Positions 28,901-59,346 of a stretch of DNA of 64,000 nucleotides are shown piece by piece (position 1 is the first letter of the stretch; each line of letters opens with the position of its first letter). The stretch comes from an uncultured delta proteobacterium (GTDB lineage: Bacteria > Myxococcota > Myxococcia > Myxococcales > Myxococcaceae). Below the pieces are notes generated by a model, which was given only the letters and a program-made list of their open reading frames with translations, ran no database searches and was not told where the DNA came from. The translations under genes were made by a program, and so were the position numbers. Where the stretch lies: assembly GCA_963796055.1 (NCBI GenBank), contig CAWCKH010000005.1, forward strand, positions 188,579 to 252,578, written 5' to 3'.

Positions 28901-29038
28901 CGAGATTTGTAGAAGAACCGCAGCGTTCTCCCCGATTGGCTCGGGTTGGTCCCTCCCGCTGAGGCGTACGCGAGGTGCTCGCGGTAACCCCTTACGCATG
29001 CTAGGGAATCTGTTGTCTGGCTCCGTAGCTCATCTGGA

Positions 29039-29308
29039 TACCACGACGCAGATCCACGCGCGTCCAACGAAGTCCAGGGGAGTCCAGAGCAGAGTGCTTC
29101 CGGCGAGATCGCGCCGCGGGATGGCTCACCGACCCCTCCGCAGAGTCCCTCGAAGTCCATCGAAGACCGCTCCAATCGACCCAAATCGAGCACAGACCTC
29201 GTCCCGGTGCCGCTCCTGGAGGACCCGGGGATCGCGATCTTGCTCACCCCCGAGGAGCTGGAGCTGGTTCTGCGGCACCGCCGGGAGAAGAAGACCGCGC
29301 CGACCTAG
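29039..29308 (+). other. Orphan 3' segment of integrase A (89 codons, rejoined on excision)
   Basis: Open frame YHDADP...LLTPEELELVLRHRREKKTAPT* begins in the att core in the same phase as integrase A. Confidence 0.65.
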
Positions 29309-29335
29309 AAGGAGCGGGACCGCTAGGCCTCCGCT

Positions 29336-30794
29336 CTGATGATCCTACACATGTCAGGGGGCTGTGATCGCGTCGAGGGATGCCGCCGAGCCAGCATGCC
29401 GCAGCCCTTCCTACGCTGTCGTCCGAGCTCGGCGATGCCGACTTGGGCGATGCCCGCCTGACTCGACGACTCGGAAGGCTCGCCGACAGAATCGCTGACC
29501 AGCCCGGGGAGAGTTTCCCCAACGTTTTCGATGATGCCGACCTCGAGGCGGCGTATCGCTTCTTTGGCAACGAAGGGGTCGGCCCCGACGCGATCCTCGC
29601 CCCGCACTTCCGGCAGTCGGCCCGGAGGGCAGCGGGGCTACCGCGAATCATCGTCGCCCATGACACCACGGCGTTCGAGTTCGGCGGCCAAACGAAGCGT
29701 GCGGGTCTTGGCCATCTGATACGCCCGTCGGCACAGGGCTTCTTCGGGCACTTCTCTCTCGGCATGAGTGCTGATGGGGAGCGCACCCCACTGGGGCTGT
29801 TGGCGATGGAGACGGTATTCCGTCTCCAGGAGTCCATCGGCCACAAGGAATGGTCGCGCGAGCAGAGCCTCGGTGAGTCGGCCCGTTGGCTTCGTTCCGT
29901 GGAAGCGGTGGAAGCTCAACTGGAAGGCCGCGTTGAAGCCATTCACGTCATGGATCGTGAAGGCGATCAATACGAACTCCTGGCGGCACTCGCCGAGGCA
30001 GTTCGGCCATTCGTCATTCGGTCGTTCCAGGACCGCCGTCTTGTGGGAGAGGACGAGGCTCGTCTTCGAGCCGCTGCCTGCACTGCCAAGGTGACGCTCC
30101 AACGGGATGTTCCTCTATCCCCACGGCCCCACCTCAAAGGCCCGAAGGGCGAGCGCCATCCGGCGCGACGCCATCGCATCGCGAGGCTGAGTTTCGCTGC
30201 CTCCACAGTGGAGTTAGTGCGACCGTCGGACGCAGGGAAGGTGCACGCTCCGACCCTGAGATTGAACGTGATCCACGTTTTCGAGCGCAGACCACCAAAG
30301 GGTGAGCCTCCGGTCGAGTGGTATCTGCTTACCAACCTTCCAACCGACTGCGACGACGCGATCGCTTTTGCTGTCGACTGCTACCGAGCGCGCTGGGTGG
30401 TCGAAGAGTTCTTCAAGGCTCTGAAAACGGGTTGCCAGTTCGAGCGGCGCCAGCTCGAGAGCGCTCCCGCCCTCCTGAATGTGCTCGCAGTACTGGCACC
30501 GGTCGCCTGGCGGCTTCTCCTCCTCCGGCACCTTGCCCGCTCGAAAAGGACAGCTCCGGCCTCGAGTGCGTTGACGCCGAAGCAACTGGAAGTGCTTCGT
30601 GCTGTCGCCAAGAAACCGCTCCGCGCACGACCAACTGCTCGTGACGCCATGCTCGCTGTCGCCTCCCTCGGCGGCCATCTCGCCAGCAACGGCGACCCCG
30701 GTTGGCTCGTCCTTGGCCGCGGCATGCACGATCTGTTGCTTCTAGAGCTCGGTTGGCGCGCGCGGGAACAGGCCGAGATGTGATCAATCATGAG
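29336..30794 (+). mobile_element. IS4-family (IS50-like) insertion sequence
   Basis: Ends CTGATGATCCTACACATGT and (reverse complement) CTCATGATTGATCACATCT; flanked by 11-bp direct repeat AGGCCTCCGCT (29325-29335, 30795-30805). Confidence 0.85.
29380..30783 (+). CDS. IS4/Tn5-type DDE transposase
   Basis: LGDARLTRRL, HDTT, DREGD, YRARWVVEEFFKALK (YREK motif), LGGHL...PG. Confidence 0.92.
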   Translation: MPPSQHAAALPTLSSELGDADLGDARLTRRLGRLADRIADQPGESFPNVFDDADLEAAYRFFGNEGVGPDAILAPHFRQSARRAAGLPRIIVAHDTTAFEFGGQTKRAGLGHLIRPSAQGFFGHFSLGMSADGERTPLGLLAMETVFRLQESIGHKEWSREQSLGESARWLRSVEAVEAQLEGRVEAIHVMDREGDQYELLAALAEAVRPFVIRSFQDRRLVGEDEARLRAAACTAKVTLQRDVPLSPRPHLKGPKGERHPARRHRIARLSFAASTVELVRPSDAGKVHAPTLRLNVIHVFERRPPKGEPPVEWYLLTNLPTDCDDAIAFAVDCYRARWVVEEFFKALKTGCQFERRQLESAPALLNVLAVLAPVAWRLLLLRHLARSKRTAPASSALTPKQLEVLRAVAKKPLRARPTARDAMLAVASLGGHLASNGDPGWLVLGRGMHDLLLLELGWRAREQAEM

Positions 30795-30989
30795 AGGCCT
30801 CCGCTAAGACCTCCGCTAGGCCCGGCAACGACGGCACCCAGCTCAGCCGGTCGAGGATAGCGTTCGCGGTGCGGAAGGACTTGGATGGCGCGCTCGAAGG
30901 TTCCGTCCGTGCCGCACTGCAGGAACCAGCCGAAGATGTTCCCTCGATGGGGTCTGCGTCGGGCGCGAGATAAGGCGCATTCTCGGTGG

Positions 30990-31107
30990 CGTCCCGGATC
31001 TGCGCCGCGAGGGATCGACGAGCTCCTGCCGGACCACTGGAACCCACCCACCCCGAACACGTCCTGAGCGATCAGCACACCCGGTGATCCAGGGTCGATC
31101 TGTCACC
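30990..31107 (+). pseudogene. Remnant 3' end of a diverged IS66 (tnpC tail plus degenerate terminus)
   Basis: GIDELLPDHWNPPTPNTS* matches RIDELLPDRWMQPAPNTS* of the intact copies; ends in GTCAC instead of GTTAC. Confidence 0.65.
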
Positions 31108-31129
31108 ACTGCGAGATTCGGGATTTCGT

Positions 31130-31175
31130 TGGGCGACCAACCGGGATTGAACTGGTAACCCCCGGAGCCACAGTC
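31130..31175 (-). repeat. tRNA-His 3' half (att-like), copy 1
   Basis: Minus strand GACTGTGGCTCCGGGGGTTACCAGTTCAATCCCGGTTGGTCGCCCA: GTG anticodon loop, T-arm, acceptor 3' strand; no 5' half. Confidence 0.8.
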
Positions 31176-31349
31176 CGAAAAGAACCACCCACTGACCTGA
31201 AGCGTCCGTCAAGACTCTTGACAAGTCTAAGCGATTCCTGGCTTCGACCTGACCACCACCCGGACGAACGCGGATTGCGTCGTCAGGGATTGAGGGAGCG
31301 CCAACTCCCTCAATCTTCCCTCAATCACCTCCCGCGGGGCTGCTTACCG

Positions 31350-31628
31350 ATTCGCGCGGCGCTCGAGCACCGTCACCGTCCGCTCTCCAACCACCCAGGC
31401 CCCTCCCTCTCGCCCCGGCCACCTCCCCGCCCCAGCTCGGCTTCTGGTGAGTGCCGTCCGAGGTTCGAGACTCACCCCCCTGACGCCAGGCTCGGGACTG
31501 CTCTACACTCGGCTGCGGTGAGCACCTCCGCCGAGGCCTCTGGGCACCGTCGCTCCGCCCCTCGCCGGCCGAAGCCACACGCTCCCGACCCAGGCCTCGG
31601 TTCGCAAACCCGGGTTGTACTTCCTTGG
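31350..31628 (+). mobile_element. IS91/ISCR-like 3' end remnant (transposase tail to ori-like terminus)
   Basis: IRAALEH...CCGCCCCAGCTCGGCTTCTGGTGA, shared downstream segment, terminus GGTTGTACTTCCTTGG. Confidence 0.6.
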
Positions 31629-31674
31629 ATCCGACCCCATCCGGCTCACAGGAATCGGGGCTTCAGGCCGCCCG

Positions 31675-33723
31675 TCACTTGGTCCGGGTAAAGGTGTAGT
31701 TCGACTCGATGTAGAAGTCGCCGAAGTGGTCATAATCGCGATACTTCCCAGCGATAGACCTTCGGTCTGAGCTGACCGCGCTGGCCTCATCGGGCGCCAA
31801 TAAGAGCCAAGGGGTGTTCGCCCGTTTGGTGAACATCGACGTGTCTCCGGAACAGTCTGCGGTGACCTCAAACTCGGGCCCATACGTATAGATCGACCCA
31901 TAGTACTGGACTGGGTTGACCGTGGTGTTGAAGACCAGCTCGGAGTCGCGCGAGATCTCCTGGGTCACCTCGAAGGTGATGGACGTGGCCGTGAAGGTAC
32001 AGAACACCCCCGGGGAAGGCGTATCGTCGTATTTCACGCTGCCGCCGGTGACGACGTACCTGGGGTGTGGCTCCGACACCGCCTGGCCCGGCGCGAACTT
32101 GAGGGTCAAGTGGGTGGTGGAGGACCACTCTGTTTTAGGAATGTTTTTGGTAAACCCGGCCGTGGCTACCGCGTCGAGCTGCCACTCGAAGCCCATGATG
32201 GGTTCCGAACCGGTGAGCGTTGCGCCCGACTCGTGTTTGCTCTCACCCCCGTCGTGCAGGTTTACCCAGGCGCGGAACTGTACCGGGGCTGCCTGCTTGA
32301 GGTCGTAGGACAGCGGCAGAATGCCGCTCAGGGTCCATTGGTCCTCGTCGTTGCGCTGGCCGCTGGCGAGGGCCACCGGCACGGTCTCTTTACCGTCGAT
32401 TGAGACATGAACCATCATATCGGCGGCCAGCTCCTGCTTGACCCCATCGATTCGGACCAAGAATGGTGCGGCATCGGGCGTCCCGTCGTTTTCGGTACCC
32501 TGGATCTCCACCAAGTCTGATGGCGTGAGGATCTGACCGGTAGCGGGGTTTAGCAGGTAGACCACTTCGCGAATCCTGAGGTCACCCCCTTCGGTACGGC
32601 CGGCCAGGAGCAAGGTGGGAGCGCTCCGACCGGGTGCCGCCGTACCAACCTTGAGTGTCCCAAGCTGGTCGTAGGCAACCTGGGCAGGATACCCACGCTC
32701 CGCCAGAGCATCGTACAGCGCAACGGCGGCAGCGGCAGCATCATCCGAATCGACCGTCTCGGTCCAACCAAACACCACGCTCGTACTTCCTTTGATGGCA
32801 TCGACCAGGTCGGTGGCCTGAGGTCCGAAGGATTGGCAGGCGTTGAGGAAGACCAACGTGTTCTTCAGCCCGGCCGGGTAGTGAGCCCGAAAGAAGTCCG
32901 CGTCGAGCGTCAGATACTCGGTCTTTGGCCCCTTGGCGTAAGTCACACCCTCGAGGGTCAGCGCACGCAGCTTCTCGGCTTTGGTTCCGGGACCGGCGGG
33001 AAGATGGTTGTTGAGCACGCCTCCTATCAGCATCGCCTTGCACTGCCCCTCGTGGCAGATACGTGTTCCGTGACTGGAGACGTGGACGACCTGGTAATCG
33101 TTCCAATGCATGAAGCTCTCCGGACCGACGTTCTTCGAGCTCTGCTGCGCATTTTCTTGATACGTGACCCCGCTCTCGTATCCGCGGGTCCCCGAGAGGA
33201 TCGCGGCCACGGCCGAGGATTCATCGGAGTCGGGCCAATTCCAGTGGAAGGGCGAGAGGACCAGAGCCTTCTTCTTGGCTGCCTCGGGGCCCGCGGCGAC
33301 CCACGAGGCGGTCCGCGGGATACGAGCTGGGGAAGGGACAGGGGGCACGCCCGAGAAGGACTCAGGGCTGAAGGCCCCTTTCCCCAGGATCCAAATCCCG
33401 GTCCCTCCTTTGGGTCGGAACCAGATGCCGGTCTCATCCCACCTCACTTCCGCCACGTCGGACTGGCCAGCGAGGAACCCCGCGACGTCGCTGGTCGGGG
33501 CGCCACCCTCCAACCGTGCCAGCGCTTCATCGCCGAGTGCATCCCCGCGCTCCAGGACCGCGATGGGAACTTCCGAGAGGGAGCAGGGATAACCGCGAAC
33601 CTGGCACTCCAGAGGACCGGTCCGCCCCGGGGCCGGCCCCGATGGCGAAGCAGAGCCGCACGAGGCGGTCGTGACAGCAATTCCTGTAGCGAGGAGGAGC
33701 GAAGATACTTGCAGCGACTGCAT
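31675..33723 (-). CDS. Large lipoprotein with clan CD protease-like His/Cys motifs
   Basis: Lipobox-like TASC; VHVSSHG and VFLNACQS; lower GC than the flanking genes. Confidence 0.65.
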   Translation of the reverse strand: MQSLQVSSLLLATGIAVTTASCGSASPSGPAPGRTGPLECQVRGYPCSLSEVPIAVLERGDALGDEALARLEGGAPTSDVAGFLAGQSDVAEVRWDETGIWFRPKGGTGIWILGKGAFSPESFSGVPPVPSPARIPRTASWVAAGPEAAKKKALVLSPFHWNWPDSDESSAVAAILSGTRGYESGVTYQENAQQSSKNVGPESFMHWNDYQVVHVSSHGTRICHEGQCKAMLIGGVLNNHLPAGPGTKAEKLRALTLEGVTYAKGPKTEYLTLDADFFRAHYPAGLKNTLVFLNACQSFGPQATDLVDAIKGSTSVVFGWTETVDSDDAAAAAVALYDALAERGYPAQVAYDQLGTLKVGTAAPGRSAPTLLLAGRTEGGDLRIREVVYLLNPATGQILTPSDLVEIQGTENDGTPDAAPFLVRIDGVKQELAADMMVHVSIDGKETVPVALASGQRNDEDQWTLSGILPLSYDLKQAAPVQFRAWVNLHDGGESKHESGATLTGSEPIMGFEWQLDAVATAGFTKNIPKTEWSSTTHLTLKFAPGQAVSEPHPRYVVTGGSVKYDDTPSPGVFCTFTATSITFEVTQEISRDSELVFNTTVNPVQYYGSIYTYGPEFEVTADCSGDTSMFTKRANTPWLLLAPDEASAVSSDRRSIAGKYRDYDHFGDFYIESNYTFTRTK

Positions 33724-33882
33724 GGAGAACCCCCCGACAGCACCAAGGTAGCGTTAGGTGACGCGACCGTCCAGACACTGCTGTCCGCCCACTGGTGGGC
33801 GGTCGGCGACACACCGGGAGGGAAGCAGGCGAGTGGTGGGGTGCCAGGAACTGGTGGATTACACTCCAGGACGGGGGACAGT

Positions 33883-34630
33883 TGTACAGACTGCTACGCC
33901 GAGGTGCTGGTCCCCATCTCCTGCAAGTCACGCGGGGTGTGCCCCTCCTGCAACGCCTGCCGAGAGCACGACACGGCCATCCACCTCGTTGAGCGGGTGC
34001 TTCCCCGGACTCCGGACCGCCCGTGGACGCTCCCACTCCCCATACCCGTGCGCTTCGCTCTGGCCAGGAATGCCCGACTCCTCTCGCTAGTGCTGGGACT
34101 CTTCGTCCGTGCGCTCTTTGCCGTCCAGCGCCGGACGGCTAGGCGGCTCGGGGTGTCCCGGCCGCTGACCGGCGCCGTGGCCCTCGTCCAGCGCTTCGGT
34201 TCGGCGCTGCAGCTGACGCCCCACTTCCACGTCCTCGTCCCCGAGGCCGGCTTCGAGGAGATGGACGAGGGGAGCTGCGGCTGGACCTCTACCGCGGCCC
34301 ACCGACGCCGAGGTGGAGACGCGTCGCCGTCCCCGTCGCCCGGCGCGCCCTCGCGCTGTTCCGTGGCGCGCGGGGTGCTCGAGGAGGAAGCCATGCCGGA
34401 CGGAGCGCTCGATGTCCTGCAGCTCGAGAGCCTCCAGGTGCTGGCCGCTTCCGCCCGCCGTGCGTCCGATCCGCCGGACTGCCTTCGTCGACGGCTTCTC
34501 GCTCCACGCCGACACCTGGCTTCACGAGAATGACGTCGTTGGCCTCGAGCGCCTGTGCAACTACGGCGCCCGAGGGCCACTGTCGCTCGAGCGACTCTCC
34601 GCCTTGCCTGACGGACGGCTCGCTTGCCGC
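33883..34630 (+). pseudogene. IS91/ISCR-like HUH transposase, truncated and frameshifted
   Basis: CTDC...SCKSRGVCPSC zinc domain, QRFGSALQLTPHFHVL HUH motif, then in another frame GFSLHA...LERLCNYGAR. Confidence 0.85.
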
Positions 34631-34898
34631 GGCGACAGCTTGAATGGACCCGCGGAAATTTGGATCTCTCCTCGTAGCCCTCACCATTCCCTCATTCGTC
34701 GCCAATGCATCGGAACTACTCAGGTGATATTGGCGAACCCCCGGATGCTCGGTCCGGCGCTAGCCGCCGGTTTTCGCAACGATTCAGGCGTCTTCGAACG
34801 TAGCTCCGTAGCGCTGCCGACTCGCGCATCCTGACGATTTCCCGCAGCACACGTGGGATGTGTCGGACGAGCTACCGGCGAAAAGGCGTGTAATTTCC

Positions 34899-34944
34899 TG
34901 GGCGACCAACCGGGATTGAACCGGTAACCCCCGGAGCCACAGTC
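34899..34944 (-). repeat. tRNA-His 3' half (att-like), copy 2
   Basis: Minus strand GACTGTGGCTCCGGGGGTTACCGGTTCAATCCCGGTTGGTCGCCCA. Confidence 0.8.
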
Positions 34945-35099
34945 TGGGCAGGCGGGTTGAGCAAGAACGGTACCAGCGCCGTACTACTTAAGAATGTTCG
35001 ATAGACGCACCGACCCTCGGCGATCATCGAAGTTCCATTCTTCGGATTGGGGGCATCTGAGCCCCCAGCGGTGCCCCCACGGGGCTTGATCAGAAGGGT

Positions 35100-35310
35100 G
35101 GAGTGGCTGGGCTCGGTTGCCGTTGTCCTCCGTTCCGCCACTGCCCGGGCCATCCTGGAGCATCTGCGGCTCCCCTCCAGGCCCCTCCTCTCGCGCCGGC
35201 CCCCCCCGCCCCAGCTCGGCCTCTGGTGAGTGCCGTCCGAGGTTCGAGACGTGCCCACCCCGACGACGGGCCACGCAGTGCTCTACCCTCAGCAGCGGTG
35301 AGCACTCCTT
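35100..35310 (+). mobile_element. IS91/ISCR-like transposase C-terminus and downstream repeat
   Basis: AVVLRSATARAILEHLRLPSRP...PPPQLGLW*, followed by the segment shared with 31450-31530. Confidence 0.7.
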
Positions 35311-35559
35311 CCGACTGCCTCCTGCCTTCGTCGTCTCAGCGCCAGGTCATGGCGCGGGAGGCAGCAACTCACGGACGGTTGCCACACCCTGAACCGCTCC
35401 GCTGCGTCGGCCTCCGGTAAGAGCAACACCACGGAAATCCGGGACTTGGAATTCGCGAATTTCCCTGCATCAGCTCGGTCGCCCGCTTACCGATCGGGCA
35501 CAGTTCTCCAGGGTGGTGAGCGGGCGGCTTCTGTCGCCTGATGCAACCAGGAGGCGGCC

Positions 35560-38001
35560 ATGAAAAGGATTGCATCGCTCCTGGGCTCGCTCCTGTTGTT
35601 CTCCTGTAGCGGGCTGGAAGGCGCGACGTCCGAGCAGGAGCTGGCGGTGCACGAGCGCGGGCCCACCGCGCTCGACCTCGTGCAGGACCCGAGCATTCTC
35701 GTCGACCCCCTGGTCAGCGCGATCGACCGAACGCTCGCCGAGATCGATCAGGCCGCCCCGGTTCGCCGCGATCCTGGCACCGACGTCTCAGAGAACTTGA
35801 TGCCATTTCGCCGCCTGTTGCTGGCAAGCCGCGCGGCGCTCGATCAGGCACACCGACAGCTTCCTGACGGCGACGTGTGCAAGGGATCCGAGTCACTCTT
35901 CCTGGCGCGGCAGGGCCTCGACCTGCTCGTCGCCACGGCCAAGCTCGCCGAACGCCTGGTCACCGCCCCCAGGGATCCTGACACCCAGAGCGGAGACGCA
36001 ACCCCGCAGGGCGGCCGATTGGCTGTCGTCCATTATTTTGAACTGCAGTTTGCGGAGATGGCGGCGGACGCGCGGGACGCCGAAACGGCGGTTCGCGCTC
36101 TGTGCCGATCGCTCAGTGCTCCCCGCACCGTCACCGGGACCGTCATGAAGATCGACGACGCCAGGCGACGCATCCGACTCGCCGACGGCACCATCCTTGG
36201 ATTGCGCGAAACCCGCGATCGGAATCCCATCTCTGCGGGCGTCCGGATCAGCGCCCAGGCGCGCTTCTTCGCGGATGGAAGCGGCTTCGCCACGGTCTAC
36301 GACGTGGTCACACTTCAAAACGGTGACGTCGCGCTCGCCCCGTGCATTGACGTCCGGGTGGCCCCGGTTCAACCGTTCCCGCCTCTCTTCTCGAATGGGA
36401 CCGCCCTGGGAACGGACGGCCGCACCGGCCTACCAGCACCCCTGCCCGGCGCTGGCCCCTACGGCCTGACTCGGATCGCGGGTTTGGAGCAGGCCCAGAA
36501 TCTCCACTATTTCGAAGCCGGCATGCGGATGGCCGCGGTCAAACAGGCGTGCCTTGCCGATATCGACGATACCGACGCGCAGTTCCATCGCTTCAGCCTG
36601 GAGATCACTTACATCGCCGGAGGCTCCACCTATAACGTCGCCGATCAACTCGAGCCGGGTGACGCACCCGCGCCCTTCCCGCCCAACACGCCGATCGCCT
36701 CCTCGGGCCTCCTGCGGGTTCGAACCAAGGTGCAGGAATGCCATCTCGCCGTCGGTCAAACTCCATTCAAGTCGCGACTGTCTCCCGATGAGATTCATGC
36801 CTGCAGCCCGACGGAGAGCGAGTGTGCGTGCGACCCGAACGCATCCTTCTGCCCGGTCCTGCCCGACTTCGACGACTTCTTCGTCGACGACCCGTATGTT
36901 TGCACCGCGCCGCAGTACCTCGGCGTACAGTTCTTCCCGATCACCTTCGGTGCCCAGGGCTCGTTCTGCGCACTCGAGTACGCGCAAAAGACGTTCGATC
37001 TCGAAGACGACGACGTGAGTAGTTTCCGCAGCACCCAGATTAGCGGCGTGACGAAGAGCTTCTCCTCCCCCACCGCCTTCTGGGCCGATGGCTACGTTCC
37101 CCAGGCGCCGGCGCCGTACTCCGGCAGCACGACCATCGTGACGCCCATGAAGGTGCAGGACCAGCAGAGCTTCGGCATCTTCAGCTTCGAGCCTTGCGGG
37201 CCCGTGTTTTCCCCGGGCAACAGCACACCCACCAGCGGCTGCTTCTTCCCAGATGACACTGCGTTCGCGCGGAACGCATTCGGCGTGACCAGGCCAGCGG
37301 GCCTACGCTGGCCCCGTATCGTGGGCAAGAATCTTCTCGGCAACGAGACCTACGCCTACTCCTGCACCGTTCCGCGCATCACCCGCGACGCGCTCGGGTT
37401 CTGTGGCCTGGGATCGGAGCCCATGTTTTATCGATCTCCCTTTGGTCCTGACGCACTGCCGCCGCTTCCCAGCACAGTAACCATGGGTCAGGCGAACTGT
37501 GCTTGCTGCGGTAATTGTGGCTGCACGCACTGTTGCGGGTGCGCTCAACACTACGCCTTTGACTTCAAGCCCAATGTCGTCGGATCGGCGATCCGGGCGA
37601 CGCGTGGTGGTGTGGTCAAGGATCTCGTCACCACCGCCGCCGACACCGACAACTGCTGGCAAAAGCCGTGTCTGGGACCAGGCGGTGCGTGGGGCAACTA
37701 CGTCACCATCGAGCATCAAGATGGAACCGCAGGCTCCTACATGCACATGCCCTTCGGGTTCCCGAGCGTCGTCAAAGGGCAGCACATCAAGCGAGGTGAT
37801 GTCATCGGCATCGAGGGAAACACTGGAAACTCGTCCGAGCCGCACACCCATCATCAGGAGCAGGTGTCGGTTTCCAATGGCACCACGCAGCTGATGCTCT
37901 ATCGAATCGCCCGGTTTGATGGCGGCATCCTGAATGGCTCCTGGACGACGCTCGACTGCTATACGCCGGTGAGCGGTGACCTGCTGACCTGGGTTCACTG
38001 A
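35560..38001 (+). CDS. Cys-rich lipoprotein with C-terminal M23 peptidase domain
   Basis: RBS GGAGG; lipobox LFSC; HYAFD, GNYVTIEH..G..Y.H and GNTGNSSEPHTH M23 motifs. Confidence 0.8.
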   Translation: MKRIASLLGSLLLFSCSGLEGATSEQELAVHERGPTALDLVQDPSILVDPLVSAIDRTLAEIDQAAPVRRDPGTDVSENLMPFRRLLLASRAALDQAHRQLPDGDVCKGSESLFLARQGLDLLVATAKLAERLVTAPRDPDTQSGDATPQGGRLAVVHYFELQFAEMAADARDAETAVRALCRSLSAPRTVTGTVMKIDDARRRIRLADGTILGLRETRDRNPISAGVRISAQARFFADGSGFATVYDVVTLQNGDVALAPCIDVRVAPVQPFPPLFSNGTALGTDGRTGLPAPLPGAGPYGLTRIAGLEQAQNLHYFEAGMRMAAVKQACLADIDDTDAQFHRFSLEITYIAGGSTYNVADQLEPGDAPAPFPPNTPIASSGLLRVRTKVQECHLAVGQTPFKSRLSPDEIHACSPTESECACDPNASFCPVLPDFDDFFVDDPYVCTAPQYLGVQFFPITFGAQGSFCALEYAQKTFDLEDDDVSSFRSTQISGVTKSFSSPTAFWADGYVPQAPAPYSGSTTIVTPMKVQDQQSFGIFSFEPCGPVFSPGNSTPTSGCFFPDDTAFARNAFGVTRPAGLRWPRIVGKNLLGNETYAYSCTVPRITRDALGFCGLGSEPMFYRSPFGPDALPPLPSTVTMGQANCACCGNCGCTHCCGCAQHYAFDFKPNVVGSAIRATRGGVVKDLVTTAADTDNCWQKPCLGPGGAWGNYVTIEHQDGTAGSYMHMPFGFPSVVKGQHIKRGDVIGIEGNTGNSSEPHTHHQEQVSVSNGTTQLMLYRIARFDGGILNGSWTTLDCYTPVSGDLLTWVH

Positions 38002-50206: not shown

Positions 50207-52498
50207 GTAACCGATCGAGCTTGGATCCTCCGGCCGAGCTGAGCGGTCAGGAGGTGTTCGGAGCTGGCTGCATCCACCGGTCCGGGAGCAGCTCGTCGAT
50301 CCGCGCCGCCGGGTGGCTCTGCACGCGGAGGAGGACATCCGCGAGGTACGCCTCCGGATTGACTCCGTTCGCCTGGCAGGTGGCCACGAGGGAGTAGAGA
50401 CCAGCGAGTCCGGCTCCGGCTTCGTCGTGCCCCACGAAGAGGAAGTTCTTCCGACCGAGGGCGACGGTGCGGAGCGCGTTCTCCGAAGCGTTGTTGTCGA
50501 GCGGCAGCGAGGCACCCTCCACGAAGTGGCCCAGCGCCTCCCACTGCCCACGTGCGTAGCGGATCGCCTCGCCCAGCGGAGACTTCGGCGGATGGAGCGG
50601 GACCTGTGTGGCCAGCCAGTCGCGAATTTTCCCGAGAAGCGGGACGCTCTGCTCAGCTCGGAGCTGGAGGTGCTCCGGCTGGCCGAGGACGCCCGCGTCG
50701 CGGGCGGCGTGCTCGACTCGGTACAGGCCAAGGATGAGGTCCAGCATGCCCTGGGCCTCGGGGGCGGTGCCGAGCGCGTCGAAGAATTTCCGCCGCACGT
50801 GCGCCCAGCAGCCCACGCGGATGCGTCCATCGGGCAGGGTGACGGCGTTGTAGCCGCTGTACGCGTCGACAAGCAGATAGCCCTTCGTGCCTTCGAGCAC
50901 CCTCGCGGGCGTCTCACCGCTCCGGGACGCGCTGTACTCGTAGGCGATGAGCTTCTCCGTCCGAAACGTCCAGATGTAGCCGCGACGTGTCTTCTCCTCC
51001 GCAAGGACGCGGATGGGCGTTTCATCCGCTCGGACCAGCTGCGCGTCGCGCACCCGCTGGAGAATCCGAGCGGCCAAGGGCGCGAGCACGTCCGCTGTGG
51101 TGTGGAAGAGGTCTCCGAGCGTGGTGCGGTTGATGGGCACGCCGGCGCGGGCCAGCGCCTTGGCCTGGCGGTACAAAGGAATGCTGTCGGCGCACTTCGC
51201 CGTGACGACGTGGGCGAGCAGGCCAGGCCCGTATTGGCACTTGTCCACCACGCGGCGAGGCCCGTCCGCGGTGACGAGGCCTTCGCCGCATCGGCAGGCC
51301 AGCGTCTCTTGCACGTGCACTTGTCGCTCGAAGCGGGCCGGCACGTACTCGTACAAGTACGTCCGTTTCCCTTCGCCCACGGGCCGCAGCTCCGAGCTCC
51401 CGCACTTCGGGCAGGTCCGCTTCTCGTCAGCGACTCGGTGCTCGACGAGGCGCTCGGGGAGCGCGGCCCTCGCTTCGCGGCGTGCGCGCCGCGTCGCCTG
51501 CGTCACCGCGGGGTCGACCGGCTTCTCTGCCCGGAGCTGCTCGGCGACCGGCGGCATCTTCTCGCTGCGCTGCCCGAAGATGTGGCGCTGGAGCGCAGCG
51601 AGCTGACCCTCGAGCTGCTGCTGTCGGTCCTGGACTTGAGCGAGCTCCGCTGCGAGCCGTTCGGCTTCGTCTCGCCACGCACACTCGTGGTCTTCGGAGC
51701 CTGGTGCCAACGCGCAGTAGAGATCATACCTCCCCCCTCGTTGGAAACTGGGTGCGGGGGGACCCACTGCTTGGGCCGGCGGACGCGGCTGAGGTCGATG
51801 CCGTCGAGCAGCATGGCGAGCTGGCTGCTCTGCAGCCGCGCTCCGAGCGCACCCTCGCGGAAGGCCGGGAGCCGGAAGCGGCCCTGCTCGAGCCGCTTGT
51901 AGAACAGGACGAAGCCCCCGTTGTCCCAGGTCAGCACCTTCGTCCTATCGCCTCGCCGGCTGACGAAGATGAAGAGGTCCCCTGCGTAGAGGTCCTCCTT
52001 CCACTCGTTACGGATGATGGCGGCGAGCCCGTCGATGCTGTTGCGCATGTCCACGGGCTTCGCGGCGAGGAGGATGCGGACTGCCCGCGGGAGGAGCAGC
52101 ACCGGGCGGCTACCGCAGCGCCCGAAGCAGCTCGCTCACGTACCTGGGCTCGGTCCCGGCCGGCAGCCGGACCACGATGCCTCCGGCGAGCGCGATCTCC
52201 ACAACCACTCCCCCTGGCCGCGCTGGAGGCGCGGCAGAGCCTACGACTTCGATGGGCAGGAAGGACTCGGAAAGCTTGGCTGCCGATTCGGAGTGCTTCT
52301 TGGCCTTCCTGTACATCCAATACTGAAATGCGGCGATGGAGAGGTCGTGCTTGGCGCAGAATTCCTTCTGCTGCAGGCCGCTCTGCTCGAACTCGGCCAG
52401 GAGGGCGATCCACTCCTCGGTGCTGGGTCGTCGGGGCATGGCGCCCGACTCTGCCGGTCAGCCGCTACGGCTCAAGACGTCCGTCGTCGGTCGGTTAC
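50207..52498 (-). mobile_element. IS66-family element, copy 2 (inverted; tnpA 52110-52439, tnpB 51503-52102, tnpC 50247-51710)
   Basis: Protein translations identical to copy 1; 2292 bp, one base shorter near the right terminus. Confidence 0.95.
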
Positions 52499-52979
52499 TC
52501 CCGCAGGGCGTGAACGGGCACCCCGACGAAATCGGCCAGAGGGCTGCATTCGACACGCAGGGCCATCGTCTCGACCACGCGTGCAATGCCTGCGGCCCCG
52601 AGCGGGAATCCGCGTTCGCGCGCCAGCTCCTGCTTGAGCTGAGCAATACGCTCCAGTGAGTGCCCACCACGTCGCGCGAGCGTATCCCGGACCTCGCTGT
52701 CCAGTCCGTTGCCTTCGGCCACGTACTCCCTCATCACCCCCGCGAGCTCCAGCTCCAGCGCGCAGGCCCAGAGCGGGTGGCTCTGAATCACCGCGTCGGC
52801 GAACAGGCGCGCGATCACCTCGCGAGCAATGACTTGGACGACCCTCGAGAGGAGTTTCATCGGACCCCCGGAGCTTCCCGGCGCGGGCGATGCTAGCCAA
52901 CTGCGTGCGACGAGTCTCGGAACGGCGCCCGAGGGACAGCCGAATTCGGCCAACACACTTCCGTTGCACGGTAGTCCGT

Positions 52980-53063
52980 GGGCTTGATCTCGTGGACAGT
53001 CTGACTACGCGATCGCCCCCGTACCCACGTCTCCGAAGGTGTCCACCGGAACGGATCAAGCCC
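52980..53063. repeat. 84-bp miniature inverted-repeat element
   Basis: GGGCTTGATC...GATCAAGCCC perfect 10-bp terminal IR with inner GTGGACA/TGTCCAC. Confidence 0.5.
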
Positions 53064-53064
53064 A

Positions 53065-53798
53065 GAGCGCGCCTCTCTGGCGGACCAGGTGCGGACACTT
53101 CTCCAGGAACTCGAGGCCTAAAGTCACGTCCCGCAATCAATTGCGGGATCGGCCTTTTGGGGCTCGAAATGGCTCTCGAATCCGCCCGAAAATACGCTCC
53201 ACAATGCGCTCCCGGATCGGGCGCATTGTCGGGCCGTTTGCCGGGCCGAATGCCGGGCGGCTTCGAGCAGCCGTCGTCAAGCAGGTCGCGCCCTTCCGCC
53301 CTCGCCCACCCGGTTCGCCTGCAGCACCGGGAGCACCCCCGAGTTTCCCGCTCACGCCCTCGCAACCATGAAACTGAGGGCGTGAGCGGGAAACTCTGGG
53401 TACCGTGAATTCTAACGGGGTGGGCGAGGGCGAAAGGACCCTCATTTGTGGAGTCTTGATGAGGAAGGTCTTGAGATGAAGTGAGTGACGAAGGGAGGGC
53501 AGTGAGAAAGGCGTGAGCAATGATGGAACGTGCATCCCCCGAGGGGCTCGAACAGACCGGTTGGCGCGGACGGCTGAGGCGAAAGGACCGACAGCTGGTT
53601 GGCGCACTTGGACTCTGTCGGTAGCTGACCATCCAGCAAGTCATCGAACTCGGAGTGGGCGCCAGGACGGAGAAGGCGACCGGGTACAGGCTCCGTGGAC
53701 TCGCCGGCCTTGAAACCAGGTCCAAGGTGCGAGCATCGAGGCCCGGACTGTTGAGACGCTTTCCTTTCCGTTCTTTCGAGGGCGAGCGGCTGCACCTG
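53065..53798 (+). repeat. About 735-bp duplicated segment, copy 2 (relaxase 5' end with premature TAG)
   Basis: Colinear with 38404-39140; CGG-TAC in copy 1 is CGG-TAG here. Confidence 0.9.
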
Positions 53799-53857
53799 GA
53801 AACCGGAGGTACCTTGTCGGCTTAGCCCACCCGTCTACGAGACCAGGGGAAGCTCAC

Positions 53858-53924
53858 TCCGCCCCAGCTCGGCCTCTAGTGAGGCCGGCCGAGGTTCGAG
53901 ACGCGCCCCGCCCTGACGACGGGC
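53858..53924 (+). mobile_element. Short IS91/ISCR-like 3' remnant
   Basis: CCGCCCCAGCTCGGCCTCTAGTGA...GAGGTTCGAGAC...CCCTGACGACGGGC, shared with the other copies. Confidence 0.55.
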
Positions 53925-54133
53925 CCGACGTCCGGGAGGCGGTGAACGCTTGGATCCGGAAATCGGGTGAGTTCGATGCGGTCCTCGACTTCGACGCCGC
54001 CCTCCGCGATCCGCGCCATCCGAAGCGCCTGCTGCCCGAGTACGACAGTGGTGACCACCTCCACCCGAACCGCGCCGGGCACAGGGCGATGGGCGAGGCC
54101 ATCGACGTGCGCCTTTTCGACGGCCCCGCCTAG
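53925..54133 (+). pseudogene. C-terminal fragment of an SGNH/GDSL hydrolase
   Basis: REAVNAWIR...FDAVLDFD..LRDP...YDSGDHLHPNRAGH. Confidence 0.7.
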
Positions 54134-55731
54134 GAGCCTGTAGGGCGTAGAGGTCAGGGCGGCGTGATCCGCTGGGCGGCATGAAGACCTGCCGCCCGTG
54201 GGCGCCGCTGCAGTCGTACCTGCTCCCGCCGTCGCCGGCGGACTGGCTCCCGGAGGGGCACCTCGCCTATTTCGTGCTCGAGGTGGTGGACCAGCTCGAC
54301 GTCGCCGCCATCGAGCGAGCCATTTCCCAGAAGGACCCGCGTGGGGAGCGCCCGTACTCGCCGCGGATGTTGCTGGGGCTGCTCATGTACGGCTACTGCG
54401 TGGGCCTGTTTTCCTCGCGGAGGCTGGCGCGCGGGACGTACGAGGACGTGGCGCTTCGGGTGCTGGCGGGGGAAGAGCATCCGCACTTCACCACCATCAA
54501 CCAATTCCGGCTGGTGCACCGGACGGCCATCGCCGGCCTCTTCGTGCAGGTGCTGGAGCTCTGCCGTCGAGCCGGGTTGGTGAAGCTGGGACACGTGGCG
54601 CTGGACGGGACGAAGCTGCTGGCCAATGCGAGCAAGCACAAGGCGATGAGCTACGAGCGGATGAAGAAGGACGAGACGCGGCTGCGAGGAGAAGTGGAGA
54701 GCCTGCTCACCCAAGCCGACGCGGTGGACGAAGCCGAGGACGCCCGCTACGGCAGAGGCATTGCCCCCGACGACTTGCCGGCCGAGTTGCAGCGTCGCGA
54801 GACGCGGCTCGAGCGCATTCGGCAGGCCAAGGCAGCGCTCGAAGAGGAGGCCCGCGCAGCACGGGCCCGGAGACTTCGAGAGAACGCCGAGGGGCTCGAG
54901 GCGGACGCGCTGAACGCCCAACTACCCGCCCGCCAGCGCAAGACAGCAGCCACCCTCGCCAAGCGGAGCGCCGCTCAAGCGGACCTGCTCGACGGCGGAC
55001 GAAAGGACGACGATGACGACCCGCCCTCAGGCGGTGCCACCGGCCTACCCACCCATCGGGTGAGGGCTCACGTCGACGGCACTCCGAAGTCGAAGGCACA
55101 GCGGAACTTCACCGACCCCGACAGCCGCATCATGGAGAAGAACGGCAGCTTTCTGCAGGCATACAACGCCCAAGTCGTGGTGGACGAAGCCCACCAAGTC
55201 ATTCTCGCGCACGGCCTGTCCAACCAGCCGCCCGACGTCGAGTACCTCGAGCCACTGCTGAGGGCCGCTGTCGCCAACTGCGGGGCGTCACCGGAGAAGG
55301 CCTCTGCGGATTCGGGCTACTTCTCGGCGGAGAACGTCGCGGCGTGCGACTCCTTGGGCATCTCGGCCTACATCTCCGTCGGTCGCGACGCGCACGACGG
55401 GCGCATCACCGACCCACGAACGACTCCGGCGAAGGACGCGATGCGGCTGAAGCTCGAGTCGGAGGAGGGCAGAGCCGTGTACGCGCGCCGGAAGGCCATC
55501 GTCGAGCCTGTCTTCGGGCAGATGAAGGCAGTCCGCGGCTTCCGTCGCCTCTCGATGCGGGGCAGGCAGAAGGCAGCGGGCGAGTGGGGCCTCGTTTGCC
55601 TCACCCACAACCTCCTGAAGCTCTTCCGGGAGGCCTGGCTCCCGGCACTCATGCCCGCGTAGCGCCGACGGGCCGCCAGTCAGCCACCGACGGCGCCCGC
55701 GCCAACGAGAGCGGCTACGCCCTACAGGCTC
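54134..55731 (+). mobile_element. IS1182-family element
   Basis: Perfect 17-bp IR GAGCCTGTAGGGCGTAG / CTACGCCCTACAGGCTC; CTAG on both sides. Confidence 0.9.
54181..55662 (+). CDS. IS1182-family transposase
   Basis: LLPPSPADWLPEGHLA, PYSPRMLL, LDGTKLLANAS, TDPDSRIM, ADSGYFS, RKAIVEPVFG. Confidence 0.92.
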   Translation: MKTCRPWAPLQSYLLPPSPADWLPEGHLAYFVLEVVDQLDVAAIERAISQKDPRGERPYSPRMLLGLLMYGYCVGLFSSRRLARGTYEDVALRVLAGEEHPHFTTINQFRLVHRTAIAGLFVQVLELCRRAGLVKLGHVALDGTKLLANASKHKAMSYERMKKDETRLRGEVESLLTQADAVDEAEDARYGRGIAPDDLPAELQRRETRLERIRQAKAALEEEARAARARRLRENAEGLEADALNAQLPARQRKTAATLAKRSAAQADLLDGGRKDDDDDPPSGGATGLPTHRVRAHVDGTPKSKAQRNFTDPDSRIMEKNGSFLQAYNAQVVVDEAHQVILAHGLSNQPPDVEYLEPLLRAAVANCGASPEKASADSGYFSAENVAACDSLGISAYISVGRDAHDGRITDPRTTPAKDAMRLKLESEEGRAVYARRKAIVEPVFGQMKAVRGFRRLSMRGRQKAAGEWGLVCLTHNLLKLFREAWLPALMPA

Positions 55732-55804
55732 CTAGCGGCGCGCGCGACCGGGGTGTTGGGTCCCGGTCGCGGCAGCCTCCGGAACGGAGTAGGGTCGCCA
55801 GCCA

Positions 55805-58472
55805 ATGGAGCTCGGACCGGGCGCGCGCCTCGGACCTTACGAGATCCTCGCTCACCTCGGCGCCGGAGGGATGGGTGAGGTCTGGCGCGCACGGGACCCA
55901 CGCCTGGGGCGTGAGGTGGCGCTCAAGGTCCTCCAGGCCGACGTCTCGCACGACGAGGAGTGGCGGCGACGCTTCGAACGAGAGGCCCGGTCCGCCGCGA
56001 GCCTCTCGCACCCTCACGTCTGTGCCGTGTACGACGTCGGCCGCGAGGGAACCCGGGACTATTTGGTGCTCGAGCTCCTGGAGGGCGAGACGCTCGAGGC
56101 GCGGCTCGAGCGTGGCGCGCTTCCCTACCCGGAGGTACTCCGGCTCGGAGCACAGATCGCCGCCGCCCTCGCCGCCGCTCACGCATCGGGCCTCATCCAC
56201 CGAGACCTCAAGCCCGGAAACGTGATGCTGGTCAGCGCCGGGGTGAAACTGCTCGACTTCGGGCTCGCCAAGCTGGTCCTCGAGGCCGCGCCCTCGGCCG
56301 GGAACACCCTCGGCTCGACCGCCGGCATGGGTCTGACCAGGCACGGCTCACTGCTCGGCACGGTGCCGTACATGTCACCCGAGCAGGCGGCGGGGAAGCC
56401 GGTGGACGCGCGGAGCGACATCTTCGCCCTGGGCGCGGTGCTCTACGAGATGGCCACCGGTGAGCGGGCGTTTCCCGGTCAGACTTCGGCCGAGGTTCTC
56501 TCGGCGATTCTGACCCGCGATCCGCCGGCGATCTCCAAGCTTCGTCCGGCCACGCCGGCAGGCTTCGACCGGCTGGTGGCAGGCTGCCTGGCCAAGGATC
56601 CGGCGGACCGGTGGGACTCGGCCCACGACCTGTCCATCCGGCTGAGGACGCCGGAGGTCGAGGTCGGGCCCTCCGGAGAGGGAGCGTCCCGGGCGCCACG
56701 ACGTCGGGTGGTGGCCGCCGTGCTGTTCGTGGGCGTGCTCCTGGGCGCCGTCGGGGCCTTGCTCATCCGGTCCCCGGCACCGGCGCCCGAGCCGGCCTCA
56801 CCGGTCCACCTCCTCCAGCCGCCCCCCACTGGAACCAAGATCTTCAACGTGCCCGAGACGAGCTCGATCGCCGTGTCGCCGGACGGCAAGCGCATCGCCT
56901 TCGTCGCCTACCAATCGGGACTGGCGAGGTCGGCGTGGATGCTGCCGGAGGGCAGACAGGTCTGGGTGCGAAACCTGTCCGAGCCCGAGGCCCACCCGGT
57001 CCCCTTCACCGAGGACGCGACGTCGGTCTTCTGGTCACCTGACGGAACCGCGCTCGGCTTCGTCGTCCCCGGGGCGATGAAGCGGGTGAACCTCGACGGA
57101 GCCATCCCGGTGCTGATCTGCCCGATGGGCCCGGGGGCACTGGCCAGCTGGGGCCCCGATGGGAACATCGTCTTCACCAGGCTGGTGGAAGCCGCGCTGT
57201 TCCAGGTTCCGGCGGCGGGAGGCGAGCCACGCCCGCTCTTCCAGCCCGACCGCTCCAGCGGGGACACGGCGTACAGCTGGCCGGTTTACCTGCCCAACGG
57301 ATGGTTGCTGTTCCTCGCCCGGAGAGGGGATGGAACCTACCGGCTGATGATGGCCAGACCGGGGGAGCCTCCCCGGCCGCTGATGCCCGTGAGCTCCAAG
57401 GTGCAATTCACCGAACCGGGACTCCTGGTGTTCGTGCGGGACGCCGCCCTGCTCGCGCAGCGCTTCGACCTTCGTTCGCAGAAGCTGGTGGGCGAGCCCT
57501 GGGCGATCGCCAGCCACGTCAGGAACTTCGCCTCCAACGCATCCGCGGAGTTCGCCACCTCTGCCGGTGGCACCCTGGTCTGGCAACCCGCCGACAGCGT
57601 GGGGTCGCTGACCTGGTTCGACCGCGCCGGTCACTCCCTCGGGCGGCTGGGAGAGGACGGGTCGTGGAGGGCAGTGTCGATCTCTCCCGACGGCGAGTCC
57701 GTCGCCTGCAGCCGTGCCCGGCCGGACACGGGCGTCTTCGAATCTCTGGTCCTTCGACATCTCGCGTGGCCTTGCCACGCCCATCGCTCCCAACCGCTTC
57801 ACCGAGAACTTGCCAGTGTGGCACCCCTCGGGAGCCGAGCTGGTGTTCACCGGAGCTGAGCGAGGAGTTCCCAACCTCCGCCGTCTGAACCTCGCCACCG
57901 GCGAGGTGGTGGAGCTCCGGCCGTCCGGAACGTTCCAGATCCCCCAGACGTTCTGCCCCGATGGACGCACCCTGGTGTTCACCGAGCGGGAGGGGAACGG
58001 CGAGCAGCGGGCCTACGAGATGCCGTTCAGGCCCGGCGCGGAGTCGAAGCGCTTGCCACTCTCGGACGCCGACACCTGGTCCCTGCGCTGCTCGCCGGAC
58101 GGACATGACCTGGCGTACATCTCGAGCGCGTCGGGGCGCGGCGAGCTCTACATCGCGCGCAACGACCACCCCGGCAGCCCGGTGCGGGTCTCGCGCGACG
58201 GCGCCGTGCTGGCCCGCTGGTCGCGAGGAACCCAGGAGCTCATCTACCTCGCGCCCGACCGGAAGGTCTGGTCCGTTCCGGTGGCCACCGACCGGTCGCT
58301 CCGAGCCGGTGTTCCGGCACTTCTCTTCGACTCTGAACAGAGCTTGCCCTGGGTGGACTTTGACGTCTCACCCGATGGGCAGCGCATCCTGGCGAACGTC
58401 CCGCTGATCGACGCCGACGGGATGCCGCTGGAGGTGCTGGTACACTGGCCCGCGGCGGCGGCGCCCCACTGA
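55805..58472 (+). CDS. Ser/Thr protein kinase with TM and PD40/TolB-like beta-propellers (frameshift near 57740)
   Basis: GAGGMGEV, VALK, HRDLKPGN, DFGLAK, YMSPEQ, SPDG repeats; the propeller continues in ORF 57714-58472. Confidence 0.88.
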
Positions 58473-58554
58473 GGTTCGTTCGGCGCCGACGGAAGGCGAC
58501 CGCCAAGAAAGCGACACCCGAGAGCCCAGCTCCGCCTGCCGCCTCGGTCCGAGG

Positions 58555-58685
58555 TCAGCGAAGGACGAGCACCGGGATCTTGCTGTGGGTCAGCACTTTG
58601 GTGGTCTCGCTCCCGATCAGCAGGGCCTGCACCCCTCGCCGCCCGTGCGAGGCCATCATGATGAGGTCACAGCCCTCCGCCACCG
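58555..58685 (-). pseudogene. C-terminal fragment of a UspA-family gene
   Basis: AEGCDLIMMASHGRRGVQALLIGSETTKVLTHSKIPVLVLR*; the 5' part is replaced by an IS91-like remnant. Confidence 0.8.
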
Positions 58686-58949
58686 CGAGAGACCATCCTC
58701 GCCGGAAGCGTCCCTGAGAGGCCCCTCCTCTCGCCCCGGCCACCTCCCCGCCCCAGCTCGGCCTCTGGTGACTGCAGTCCAAGCCTCGAGACTCCCTCCG
58801 CCCTGACGACGAGCCAGCGACTGCTCGACCCTCGTCAGCGGTGAGCACCTCCGCCGAGCCTTCCCGCAGCCTCGTCCTGGCCCTCCGCCCCGGCGACGCG
58901 GGTCCCCTGCCCAGGCCTCCGCCACGAAAGCCGGTTTGTTCTTCCTTGG
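58686..58949 (+). mobile_element. IS91/ISCR-like 3' end remnant with ori-like terminus
   Basis: Similar to 31350-31628; ends GTTTGTTCTTCCTTGG. Confidence 0.6.
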
Positions 58950-58967
58950 GCTCGTCCACGCTGAGGC

Positions 58968-59300
58968 TTACCGGCCACCTCTGCGGATGAAGTCTTCGAG
59001 GTCCTCGACCCGCACCCGGATGGCGTTGGACACCCGGACGTGCCGGAGTTCGCTGCGCTCGCACAGCGCGTAGACGGTCGCGGTCGACACACGCAGGTGC
59101 TCCGCGGCCTCGCGGACGGTGAGCAGGGCTGGGACGGAGAAGGAAAGGCCCTGGAGCCTTGGCTTGGGTCCCGCGGGGGTCCCGCTCCGCAGCGTCCGCT
59201 GGAGCCCACGCGGTGCTAAGCCGCCCGAATCACCTTCGCGACCCTCAATGTTTGTCACGGGTTGGATGGAGGAGGAGGCTGTGGAAAGGGGCGCGACCGA
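58968..59300 (-). CDS. Detached C-terminal segment of integrase B with an HTH_17 domain
   Basis: LLTVREAAEHLRVSTATVYALCERSELRHVRV; frame is open up to the att core and in phase with integrase B. Confidence 0.8.
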   Translation of the reverse strand, partial: SVAPLSTASSSIQPVTNIEGREGDSGGLAPRGLQRTLRSGTPAGPKPRLQGLSFSVPALLTVREAAEHLRVSTATVYALCERSELRHVRVSNAIRVRVEDLEDFIRRGGR

Positions 59301-59346
59301 CTTCGAAGCCGGGGGTAGCAGGTTCGAGTCCTGCCGGAGTCGCTCG

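Follow-up and report, generated by a model that had tools for sequence, protein, structure and literature searches.

The window analysed here is a stretch of 64,000 nucleotides (nt) from an uncultured member of the Myxococcaceae (assembly GCA_963796055.1, contig CAWCKH010000005.1, positions 188,579 to 252,578 of the forward strand), and our subject is its tRNA-Arg(TCG) gene together with the two integrative elements that lie on either side of it. Very probably, small elements of one myxobacterial family, with integrases related to that of the phage Mx9, inserted into this gene on two occasions. Element B, downstream of the gene (40796-59300), would be an ordinary member of this family with a site in the 3' part of the tRNA gene, and element A, upstream of it (29041-40717), would belong to a derived clade that uses the 5' part up to the D-loop. 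Both have decayed. The following features carry this reading:

28937 to 29016, plus strand: native upstream region of the tRNA gene, stranded with the 5' fragment; matches the flanks of G006:C60 and L065
29017 to 29040, plus strand: displaced 5' fragment of tRNA-Arg(TCG) (-2 to +22), outer junction of element A, an exact 24-nt repeat
39837 to 40742, plus strand: IntA remnant, residues ~126-426 of a 426-residue integrase, catalytic domain retained (PF00589, orthologue comparison)
40720 to 40794, plus strand: intact tRNA-Arg(TCG) (ARAGORN, Rfam), positions 1-22 in the A repeat and 33-75 in the B repeat
40731 to 42139, minus strand: IntB, a full-length homologue with a one-base frameshift as assembled (ruler alignment, see below)
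59301 to 59344, plus strand: displaced 3' fragment of tRNA-Arg(TCG) (33 to +1 past the end), outer junction of element B, an exact 44-nt repeat

ARAGORN placed the tRNA-Arg(TCG) gene at 40720-40794 on the plus strand and Rfam at 40720-40793 (64.9 bits). It is the only tRNA gene with this anticodon in the genome, and the Rfam search over 27000-61000 found nothing besides it. Both the reading of the sequence and a repeat finder showed that 29017-29040 is identical to 40718-40741 (24/24 nt) and 59301-59344 to 40752-40795 (44/44 nt). The 24-nt repeat spans positions -2 to +22 of the tRNA, that is, the 5' acceptor strand, bases 8-9, the 5' strand of the D-stem, and the entire 9-nt D-loop. The 44-nt repeat starts at position 33, where the anticodon loop begins, and ends one base beyond the 3' end. 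The two cores are separated by 10 nt (40742-40751, tRNA positions 23-32), which are the only bases of the tRNA outside both repeats. With up to two mismatches allowed, the 24-mer occurs at exactly two sites in the genome of 5,530,790 bases, and the reversed control gave none. A preliminary description of this DNA had named both duplications, had stated that the cores do not overlap, and had expected the 24-mer to be uncommon elsewhere in the genome. All of this stands, except that the 3' copy comprises 43 tRNA bases plus one downstream base instead of 44 bases of the gene.

The two integrase open reading frames (ORFs), 39936-40742 on the plus and 40731-42245 on the minus strand, match PF00589 with an E value of 8e-24 each. 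IntA and IntB share 51.6% identity over 275 amino acids (aa; E 1.6e-81) and converge on the tRNA gene from either side. As a ruler for completeness we used a 456-aa paralogue encoded in the same genome at C4:1659717-1661087, beside tRNA-Pro(CGG). IntA aligns to residues 128-400 of this ruler only, its N-terminal ~127 residues being gone; the intact orthologues P0001 and P0002 from public data have 426 aa and 93% identity. For IntB, the alignment to the ruler is split between two frames: residues 1-101 correspond to 42139-41837 (frame -1) and residues 105-454 to 41828-40740 (frame -3). The break corresponds to one base missing in a run of five G (41843-41847), where a related contig from a soil metagenome (run X1) has six G. 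It may be a true mutation or a homopolymer assembly error. The preliminary description had called the integrases clear paralogues converging on the tRNA gene, and the motifs that it quoted are indeed found in both translations, but neither gene is intact as assembled.

Both integrase frames enter the tRNA gene. IntA reads into it in sense, and the end of the core falls within the IntA stop codon, the TAG at 40740-40742. In antisense, the IntB frame stays open through the tRNA gene to 40731, and the tRNA-Pro(CGG) integrase likewise reads antisense through its own tRNA. Among homologues, P0001, P0002, P0003, and P0071 terminate in the translated 5' end of a tRNA, and antisense C-terminal motifs of the T-arm type are present in 46 of 80 family rows.

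An intact element of the A type was found on L056, a contig of a Myxococcaceae metagenome-assembled genome. Its 436-aa integrase reads on the same strand into a tRNA-Arg(TCT) gene, and a 22-nt repeat of tRNA positions -2 to +20 is located 6996 base pairs upstream, which gives a complete unit of 7.0 kilobases (kb). Pfam and PHROGs searches with the cargo ORFs of L056 returned no matches and no recognizable phage genes, and from its sequence the element would be classed as a small integrative element and nothing finer. Window positions 29015-29329 align with L056 4289-4603 at 92.7% identity. A scan of metagenome contigs with a 24-mer from the outer arm of element A revealed five loci (L062-L066), all five in the integrated form with the arm directly after a tRNA-Arg 5' fragment (-2 to +20). 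They represent three host contexts: L062 and L066 resemble L056, the flank of L063 and L064 aligns upstream of the intact tRNA gene in the relative G004, and L065 is window-like. In the window, 28937-29016 plus the core show 74% identity to the stretch directly 5' of the intact tRNA gene in G006:C60, and the L065 flank aligns with the same upstream region of G006.

These loci bear on the explanation that element A is not a 5'-side insertion at all, in which case the 24-nt copy would stem from a local duplication or rearrangement or from another element, and the integrase would lie beside the tRNA gene by chance. Such an origin could draw on the variable left flank (27-30 kb separate the left-flank gene from the tRNA gene in G003 and G007) and on 5' fragments of 47, 40, and 20 nt in G006 and G007, which have no family integrase nearby. 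But the sequence that follows the fragment is an A-type outer arm at six other loci, including one at a different tRNA gene, the integrase frames of the A clade end in the translated tRNA 5' end, and L056 is a complete unit bounded by the same kind of repeat. We consider this explanation highly improbable and treat element A as inserted on the 5' side.

Counterparts of element B are present in its own genome. The element at tRNA-Pro(CGG) is about 6.0 kb long, repeats its tRNA from position 33 onward, and has a gene order like that of element B: int, xis, geneX, family module, kinase, HTH_17 gene, tRNA fragment. It stands in a tandem array of B-type elements (C4:1659706-1671790) that contains the intact 456-aa integrase as well as two tRNA fragments, one of 48 nt at 1665763, after which an integrase remnant lies, and one of 19 nt at 1671772. 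All other family paralogues that lie beside a tRNA gene in this genome (Pro-CGG, Arg-CCG, Arg-CCT) are of the 3' type. When the excised forms were scripted in silico, IntB and the tRNA-Pro integrase both ran in frame into the distal HTH_17 ORF. In the excised form, IntB reads across the core into the HTH_17 sequence at 58968-59300 without a change of frame, and this sequence can therefore be regarded as a detachable C-terminal domain. Natural fusions of this kind exist: eight among 120 listed homologues, 521-588 aa in length, combine the recombinase domain with an antisense-tRNA linker and a C-terminal HTH_17 domain.

In a tree of 77 rows including the Mx9 integrase, the four A-type rows form one clade with a support of 100 in the Shimodaira-Hasegawa-like approximate likelihood ratio test (SH-aLRT). 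This clade is nested in a larger one of 48 rows (support 99), of which 34, IntB included, are of the 3' type; two further clades and Mx9 are placed outside. A tree of 76 rows agrees, with a support of 99 for the A-type clade. Among the rows dropped for long branches is P0077, which has an A-type N-terminus and a shifted C-terminus. The comparison of integrase phylogeny and attachment position that had been proposed in the preliminary description therefore places the A-type rows as one clade inside a 3'-targeting family. The simplest reading would be a single switch to the 5'/D-loop site within this family.

The preliminary description had drawn a different conclusion from the separate cores, namely, that related integrases partitioned one target gene so that both elements can co-reside. 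On this view, the non-overlapping cores would have evolved to keep the elements from competing or recombining with each other. The cores are separate (-2 to 22 versus 33 to 76), IntA and IntB are paralogues, and excision of either element would presumably spare the other junction and the tRNA gene. Yet members of the family also stack at one and the same site, as shown by the tRNA-Pro(CGG) fragments at 1665763 and 1671772 and by two 3' fragments 11.8 kb apart in G005:C251. Because such tandem arrays occur, separate cores are not needed for co-residence. Moreover, the 5'/D-loop choice is clade-wide and is also made at tRNA-Arg(TCT) in L056, where no B-type integrase lies downstream. Each type also occurs alone: G001 has an A-type remnant with panE directly after the tRNA gene, and G003 has a B-type integrase after the tRNA gene and no 5' fragment in the 27 kb upstream. 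Nothing in the locus points to selection for co-residence, and we judge adaptive partitioning improbable. Two successive insertions by differently targeted members of one family remain the preferred reading.

Comparison with relatives, which had been suggested as a check, revealed empty sites. The host genes on either side are the following:

28001 to 28686, minus strand: left-flank gene, Polyketide_cyc2/SRPBCC-type (PF10604), 78-84% identical to its counterparts in the same-genus genomes G003, G004, G007, G008, G010, and G012
59347 to 60270, minus strand: right-flank gene panE, ketopantoate reductase (PF02558, PF08546), which adjoins the tRNA gene in G001 and G006

In G006:C60, the window-type upstream flank (80 nt), the intact tRNA gene, and panE follow each other in one run, and the site is thus empty on both sides. 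In G001:C675 the tRNA gene adjoins panE, with the decayed integrase remnant upstream, and in G004:C18 the left-flank gene is only 284 nt from the intact tRNA gene. This locus is a hot spot at which events of several kinds have taken place. Two further observations were made there. In G007:C18 (L045), a MOSC-domain gene lies between a 40-nt (3337-3376) and a 20-nt (4309-4328) 5' fragment of tRNA-Arg(TCG), and neither an intact tRNA-Arg(TCG) gene nor a panE match was found in that genome. In G006:C60 (L042), a 47-nt 5' fragment (4495-4541) is located 3.8 kb upstream of the intact gene.

A number of points weigh against the interpretation given above. Among 12 same-genus genomes searched, the left-flank gene lies beside the tRNA gene in one species only, G004, and nothing in this genome corresponds to the 27-30 kb found between the two in G003 and G007, which speaks against a simple history of the left flank. 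The trees are quick maximum-likelihood searches without bootstrap, site types were labelled by C-terminal peptide motifs instead of DNA context, and 11 rows were dropped from the 77-row tree (four shorter than 260 aa, seven with long branches). No circular form of A was seen in the five metagenome loci, and no clear joint of an excised form among the aligned metagenome contigs. IntA is truncated and element A has no excisionase gene; therefore, A should now be immobile by itself. Element B has a mosaic interior; relative to IntB, its family module points the other way than in the other elements. Finally, no promoter-like site was detected in 40300-40850 or in 28700-29100, the two regions scanned for promoters and terminators; as it stands, this result is uninformative.

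Element B could still be active if the IntB frameshift is a homopolymer assembly error and excision occurs at low frequency in the population. Besides the single-base nature of the break and the six G in the related X1 contig, this is suggested by the retention of xis, geneX, and the HTH_17 arm, and by the sequencing run X4, in which 31 of 54 aligned contigs are at least 99% identical to element A and one contig continues from the tRNA end into 16 nt identical to the panE flank. However, these are assembled contigs and not reads, the best of the runs listed, none of which was an RNA run, shared only 0.35 of the sampled words, and the contig lacking B may come from another strain. Element B also carries three transposons and a split second recombinase gene, which fits long residence. 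On balance, we consider present-day activity of B unlikely, though far less so than the two explanations discussed above, and both elements are treated here as decayed.

Our proposed course of events starts from tRNA-Arg(TCG) as an integration hot spot for two small elements that would have measured ~6-7 kb when intact. In both, the attachment site would lie within the 3' end of the int frame. Because of this position, integration would sever the C-terminal tail, which would then stay behind at the element's far end. Element B would follow the ordinary type of the family. In element A, the site would copy the tRNA in sense from the 5' end as far as the D-loop, with the crossover in or just before the D-loop, and integration would restore the first 20-22 bases. 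Element A would then have to supply transcription of the tRNA. Later, A would have lost geneX, xis, and the first ~127 int codons and gained an insertion sequence (IS), and B would have taken up two IS66 copies, another IS, and other DNA, as well as the int frameshift unless this is an assembly error. What the data show are the repeats, the homology of the elements, the grouping of the integrases into clades, sites with and without an insertion, and the tails that continue in frame. What we infer is where exactly the crossover took place, whether the tails are translated and what role they play, and which of the two insertions came first. The preliminary description had presented the elements as mirror images. 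They do belong to one family, and one restores the 5' and the other the 3' part of the tRNA, but A has lost geneX, xis, and the 5' third of int, and B is a transposon mosaic.

The outer arm of element A deserves attention with regard to such a tail. Read in the frame of the core, it contains no stop for 89 codons, to ~29308, and the frame remains open in four distinct versions. It may encode a detachable C-terminal tail of IntA in the excised form, by analogy to element B, or it may contain arm sites for the integrase. The variable columns are spread evenly over the codon positions (11, 9, and 14 of 91 each), and a Pfam search with the frame found no match, including none to HTH_17. These two results leave translation of the A tail an analogy only; the conservation of the arm may instead reflect DNA-binding arm sites. 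With this in mind, a stronger version of the proposal can be put forward tentatively, as somewhat less probable than an even chance. According to it, the in-gene site of one clade of an Mx9-like family would have flipped: instead of the 3' part of the tRNA in antisense, it would now correspond to the 5' part in sense. The TAG of the tRNA D-arm would serve as the stop codon of the integrated int gene, the excised form would regain a conserved tail of ~90 residues, so that the protein would be switched reversibly according to whether the element is integrated, and the element would bring its own means for tRNA transcription. The flip may have exploited the likeness of the two acceptor-stem strands when read from either side.

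Apart from the features already listed, element A comprises:

29041 to 29329, plus strand: conserved outer arm (92.7% identity to L056)
29330 to 30812, plus strand: IS with an IS4-like DDE transposase ORF at 29380-30783 (PF14706, PF01609)
30813 to 38403, no strand assigned: interior with mosaic cargo (Pfam, PHROGs, repeats)
31675 to 33723, minus strand: 682-aa ORF of unknown kind, in the interior
within 32833 to 34533, no strand assigned: IS91-like fragments, in the interior
35560 to 38001, plus strand: 813-aa protein with an M23 peptidase domain (Pfam), in the interior
~31112 to 31540, 34881 to 35320, and 38247 to 38310, no strand assigned: multi-copy repeat units with 12-32 matches in the genome
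38404 to 39140, plus strand: family module, non-annotated, a 91-97% direct repeat of 53065-53798

The segment 29330-30812 can be recognized as an inserted IS because the match to L056 stops at 29329 and resumes at 30813; a soil-metagenome contig without the IS joins 29325 to 30821. In the left flank, G+C content is 75%, compared to 63-67% in the interior. We considered the repeat units at 31112, 34881, and 38247 as scars of further tRNA insertions and rejected this reading, their likeness to the reverse complement of a tRNA 3' end being by eye only and the units belonging to a multi-copy repeat family. The module at 38404-39140 is also present in L056, in the tRNA-Pro element, and in about ten further places of the genome. 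This ~740-nt sequence has internal inverted repeats and no match to a protein family, and it occurs in elements of both the A and the B type. Its function may lie in the regulation or replication of these elements. Between the counterpart of 39692-39780 and its integrase gene, L056 carries geneX and an HTH_17 excisionase gene, whose counterparts in the window are located in element B (42554-42846 and 42230-42355). Since L056 has these genes, element A can be said to have lost ~1.5 kb with geneX, xis, and the first ~127 int codons.

Element B measures 18.5 kb and has been enlarged by an IS66 pair, a third transposase gene, a split second recombinase gene, and a sigma-54-like gene. In addition to IntB, it contains:

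42139 to 42372, minus strand: excisionase-type HTH_17 gene, xis (PF12728, E 1.9e-9; PHROG excisionase families)
42496 to 42831, minus strand: geneX, a small conserved unnamed ORF upstream of xis, 87-89% identical to L056 8928-9218 and the tRNA-Pro element
43624 to 47153, plus strand: second, unrelated tyrosine recombinase gene, split by IS66 copy 1 at 44239-46522 (PF00589 on 46536-47153; weak integrase PHROG on 43624-44265)
between the IS66 copies: 422-aa ORF of unknown kind
49101 to 50183, minus strand: 360-aa sigma-54-like gene between the IS66 copies, with activator-interacting, core-binding, and DNA-binding domains (Pfam)
50215 to 52498, minus strand: IS66 copy 2, inverted and 100% identical to copy 1 (the 2284-nt inverted repeat I1)
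53065 to 53798, plus strand: second copy of the family module (repeat finder, comparison with the tRNA-Pro element)
54181 to 55662, plus strand: DDE transposase (Pfam)
55805 to 57859, plus strand: Ser/Thr kinase with PD40 repeats (Pfam), a 67% match to C4:1662969-1663639 in the tRNA-Pro element
58968 to 59300, minus strand: outer arm encoding an HTH_17 domain (PF12728, E 7.6e-14), 87% identical to the matching end of the tRNA-Pro element

For geneX, neither Pfam nor PHROGs gave a family match. The sigma-54-like gene may be a cargo copy of rpoN. The two IS66 copies are each flanked by an exact direct repeat, one of 84 nt (44157-44240 = 46532-46615) and one of 46 nt (50161-50206 = 52499-52544), and the usual target duplication of IS66 is far shorter than either. 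A 38-nt piece of the IS66 end recurs at 47313-47350.

Among phages, the integrase of Mx9 (AY247757.2) is the best match to IntB, with 35% identity, 82% query coverage, and an E value of 2e-35. It has 548 aa and combines PF00589 with a C-terminal HTH_17 domain, like the in-frame reconstruction of integrase, core, and HTH_17 for element B and like the eight natural fusions. Mx9 differs in being a 53-kb phage, whereas the elements of the window family are 6-7 kb long and have no recognizable phage genes. In addition, the target of the A-type clade is at the other end of the tRNA gene and on the other strand, and the tail of this clade has no match to HTH_17. For Mx9, attP reportedly lies within the int gene, as is said to have been described by Julien in 2003. 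A comparable principle applies to Mx8, where integration reportedly alters the C-terminus of IntP (work ascribed to Tojo et al. in 1996 and to Tojo and Komano in 2003), and elements A and B would parallel it. However, the 119 phage records that match IntB at an E value of 1e-5 do not include Mx8, the matches from Myxococcus being Mx9 and Mx4 with two records each. Sequence kinship to Mx8 is therefore unsupported. An element in 'reversed orientation' is also said to have been reported by Zhao and Williams in 2002.

Sites resembling that of element A have been described for islands upstream of the tRNA-Arg gene arg2 in Klebsiella pneumoniae, for which the accessible text of the report gives the acceptor stem's 5' half, together with D-stem and D-loop, as the site and terms this a novel D-loop sublocation (10.1101/2020.11.02.365908). 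According to the same text, strains 616 and A708 have one island upstream and one downstream of arg2A (10.1101/2020.11.02.365908). Element A corresponds to such a site: its repeat covers -2 to +22 in the window and -2 to +20 in L056 and L062-L066, and the island lies upstream of the tRNA gene (tDNA). The arg2 islands occur in another host phylum, and the accessible text does not mention an attachment site inside the integrase gene. In the Islander collection, a 5' tDNA fragment is given for 159 of 3919 islands in the part of the paper at hand (PMC4383910). The preliminary description had called use of the 5' end uncommon; its rarity is real, but the arrangement itself had already been described. 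As far as that part of the paper extends, the crossover classes listed are T-stem and anticodon-centred only, and the crossover of element A would be at the D-loop (PMC4383910). Elements A and B otherwise agree with islands as defined there: each has a tyrosine integrase gene inside and is delimited by the intact tDNA and a fragment in the same orientation, and empty sites exist in relatives. Use of the 5' side, a D-loop site, and double occupancy of a tRNA-Arg gene are thus already described, and no new principle is involved. What is added is a 5'/D-loop clade nested in an Mx9-like family, with the attachment site inside the integrase gene.

The two integrases constitute a natural pair for studying retargeting, being 52%-identical paralogues that use different sublocations of one 75-nt gene in opposite orientation. 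The intact A-type integrases P0001, P0002, and P0003 and the defined junctions could serve as test material. This could aid in finding or re-aiming integrases for the engineering of myxobacterial genomes, in which the Mx8 and Mx9 sites are standard tools according to the accessible part of an article (PMC11610982).

A last observation concerns the host sequence to the left of element A. The intergenic stretch 28699-28894 (196 nt) is 94% identical to G002:C244:8826-9021, compared to only ~80-87% for the flanking genes of relatives. It is single-copy in this genome and matches no Rfam family, and this stretch alone is covered by two contigs from soil metagenomes.

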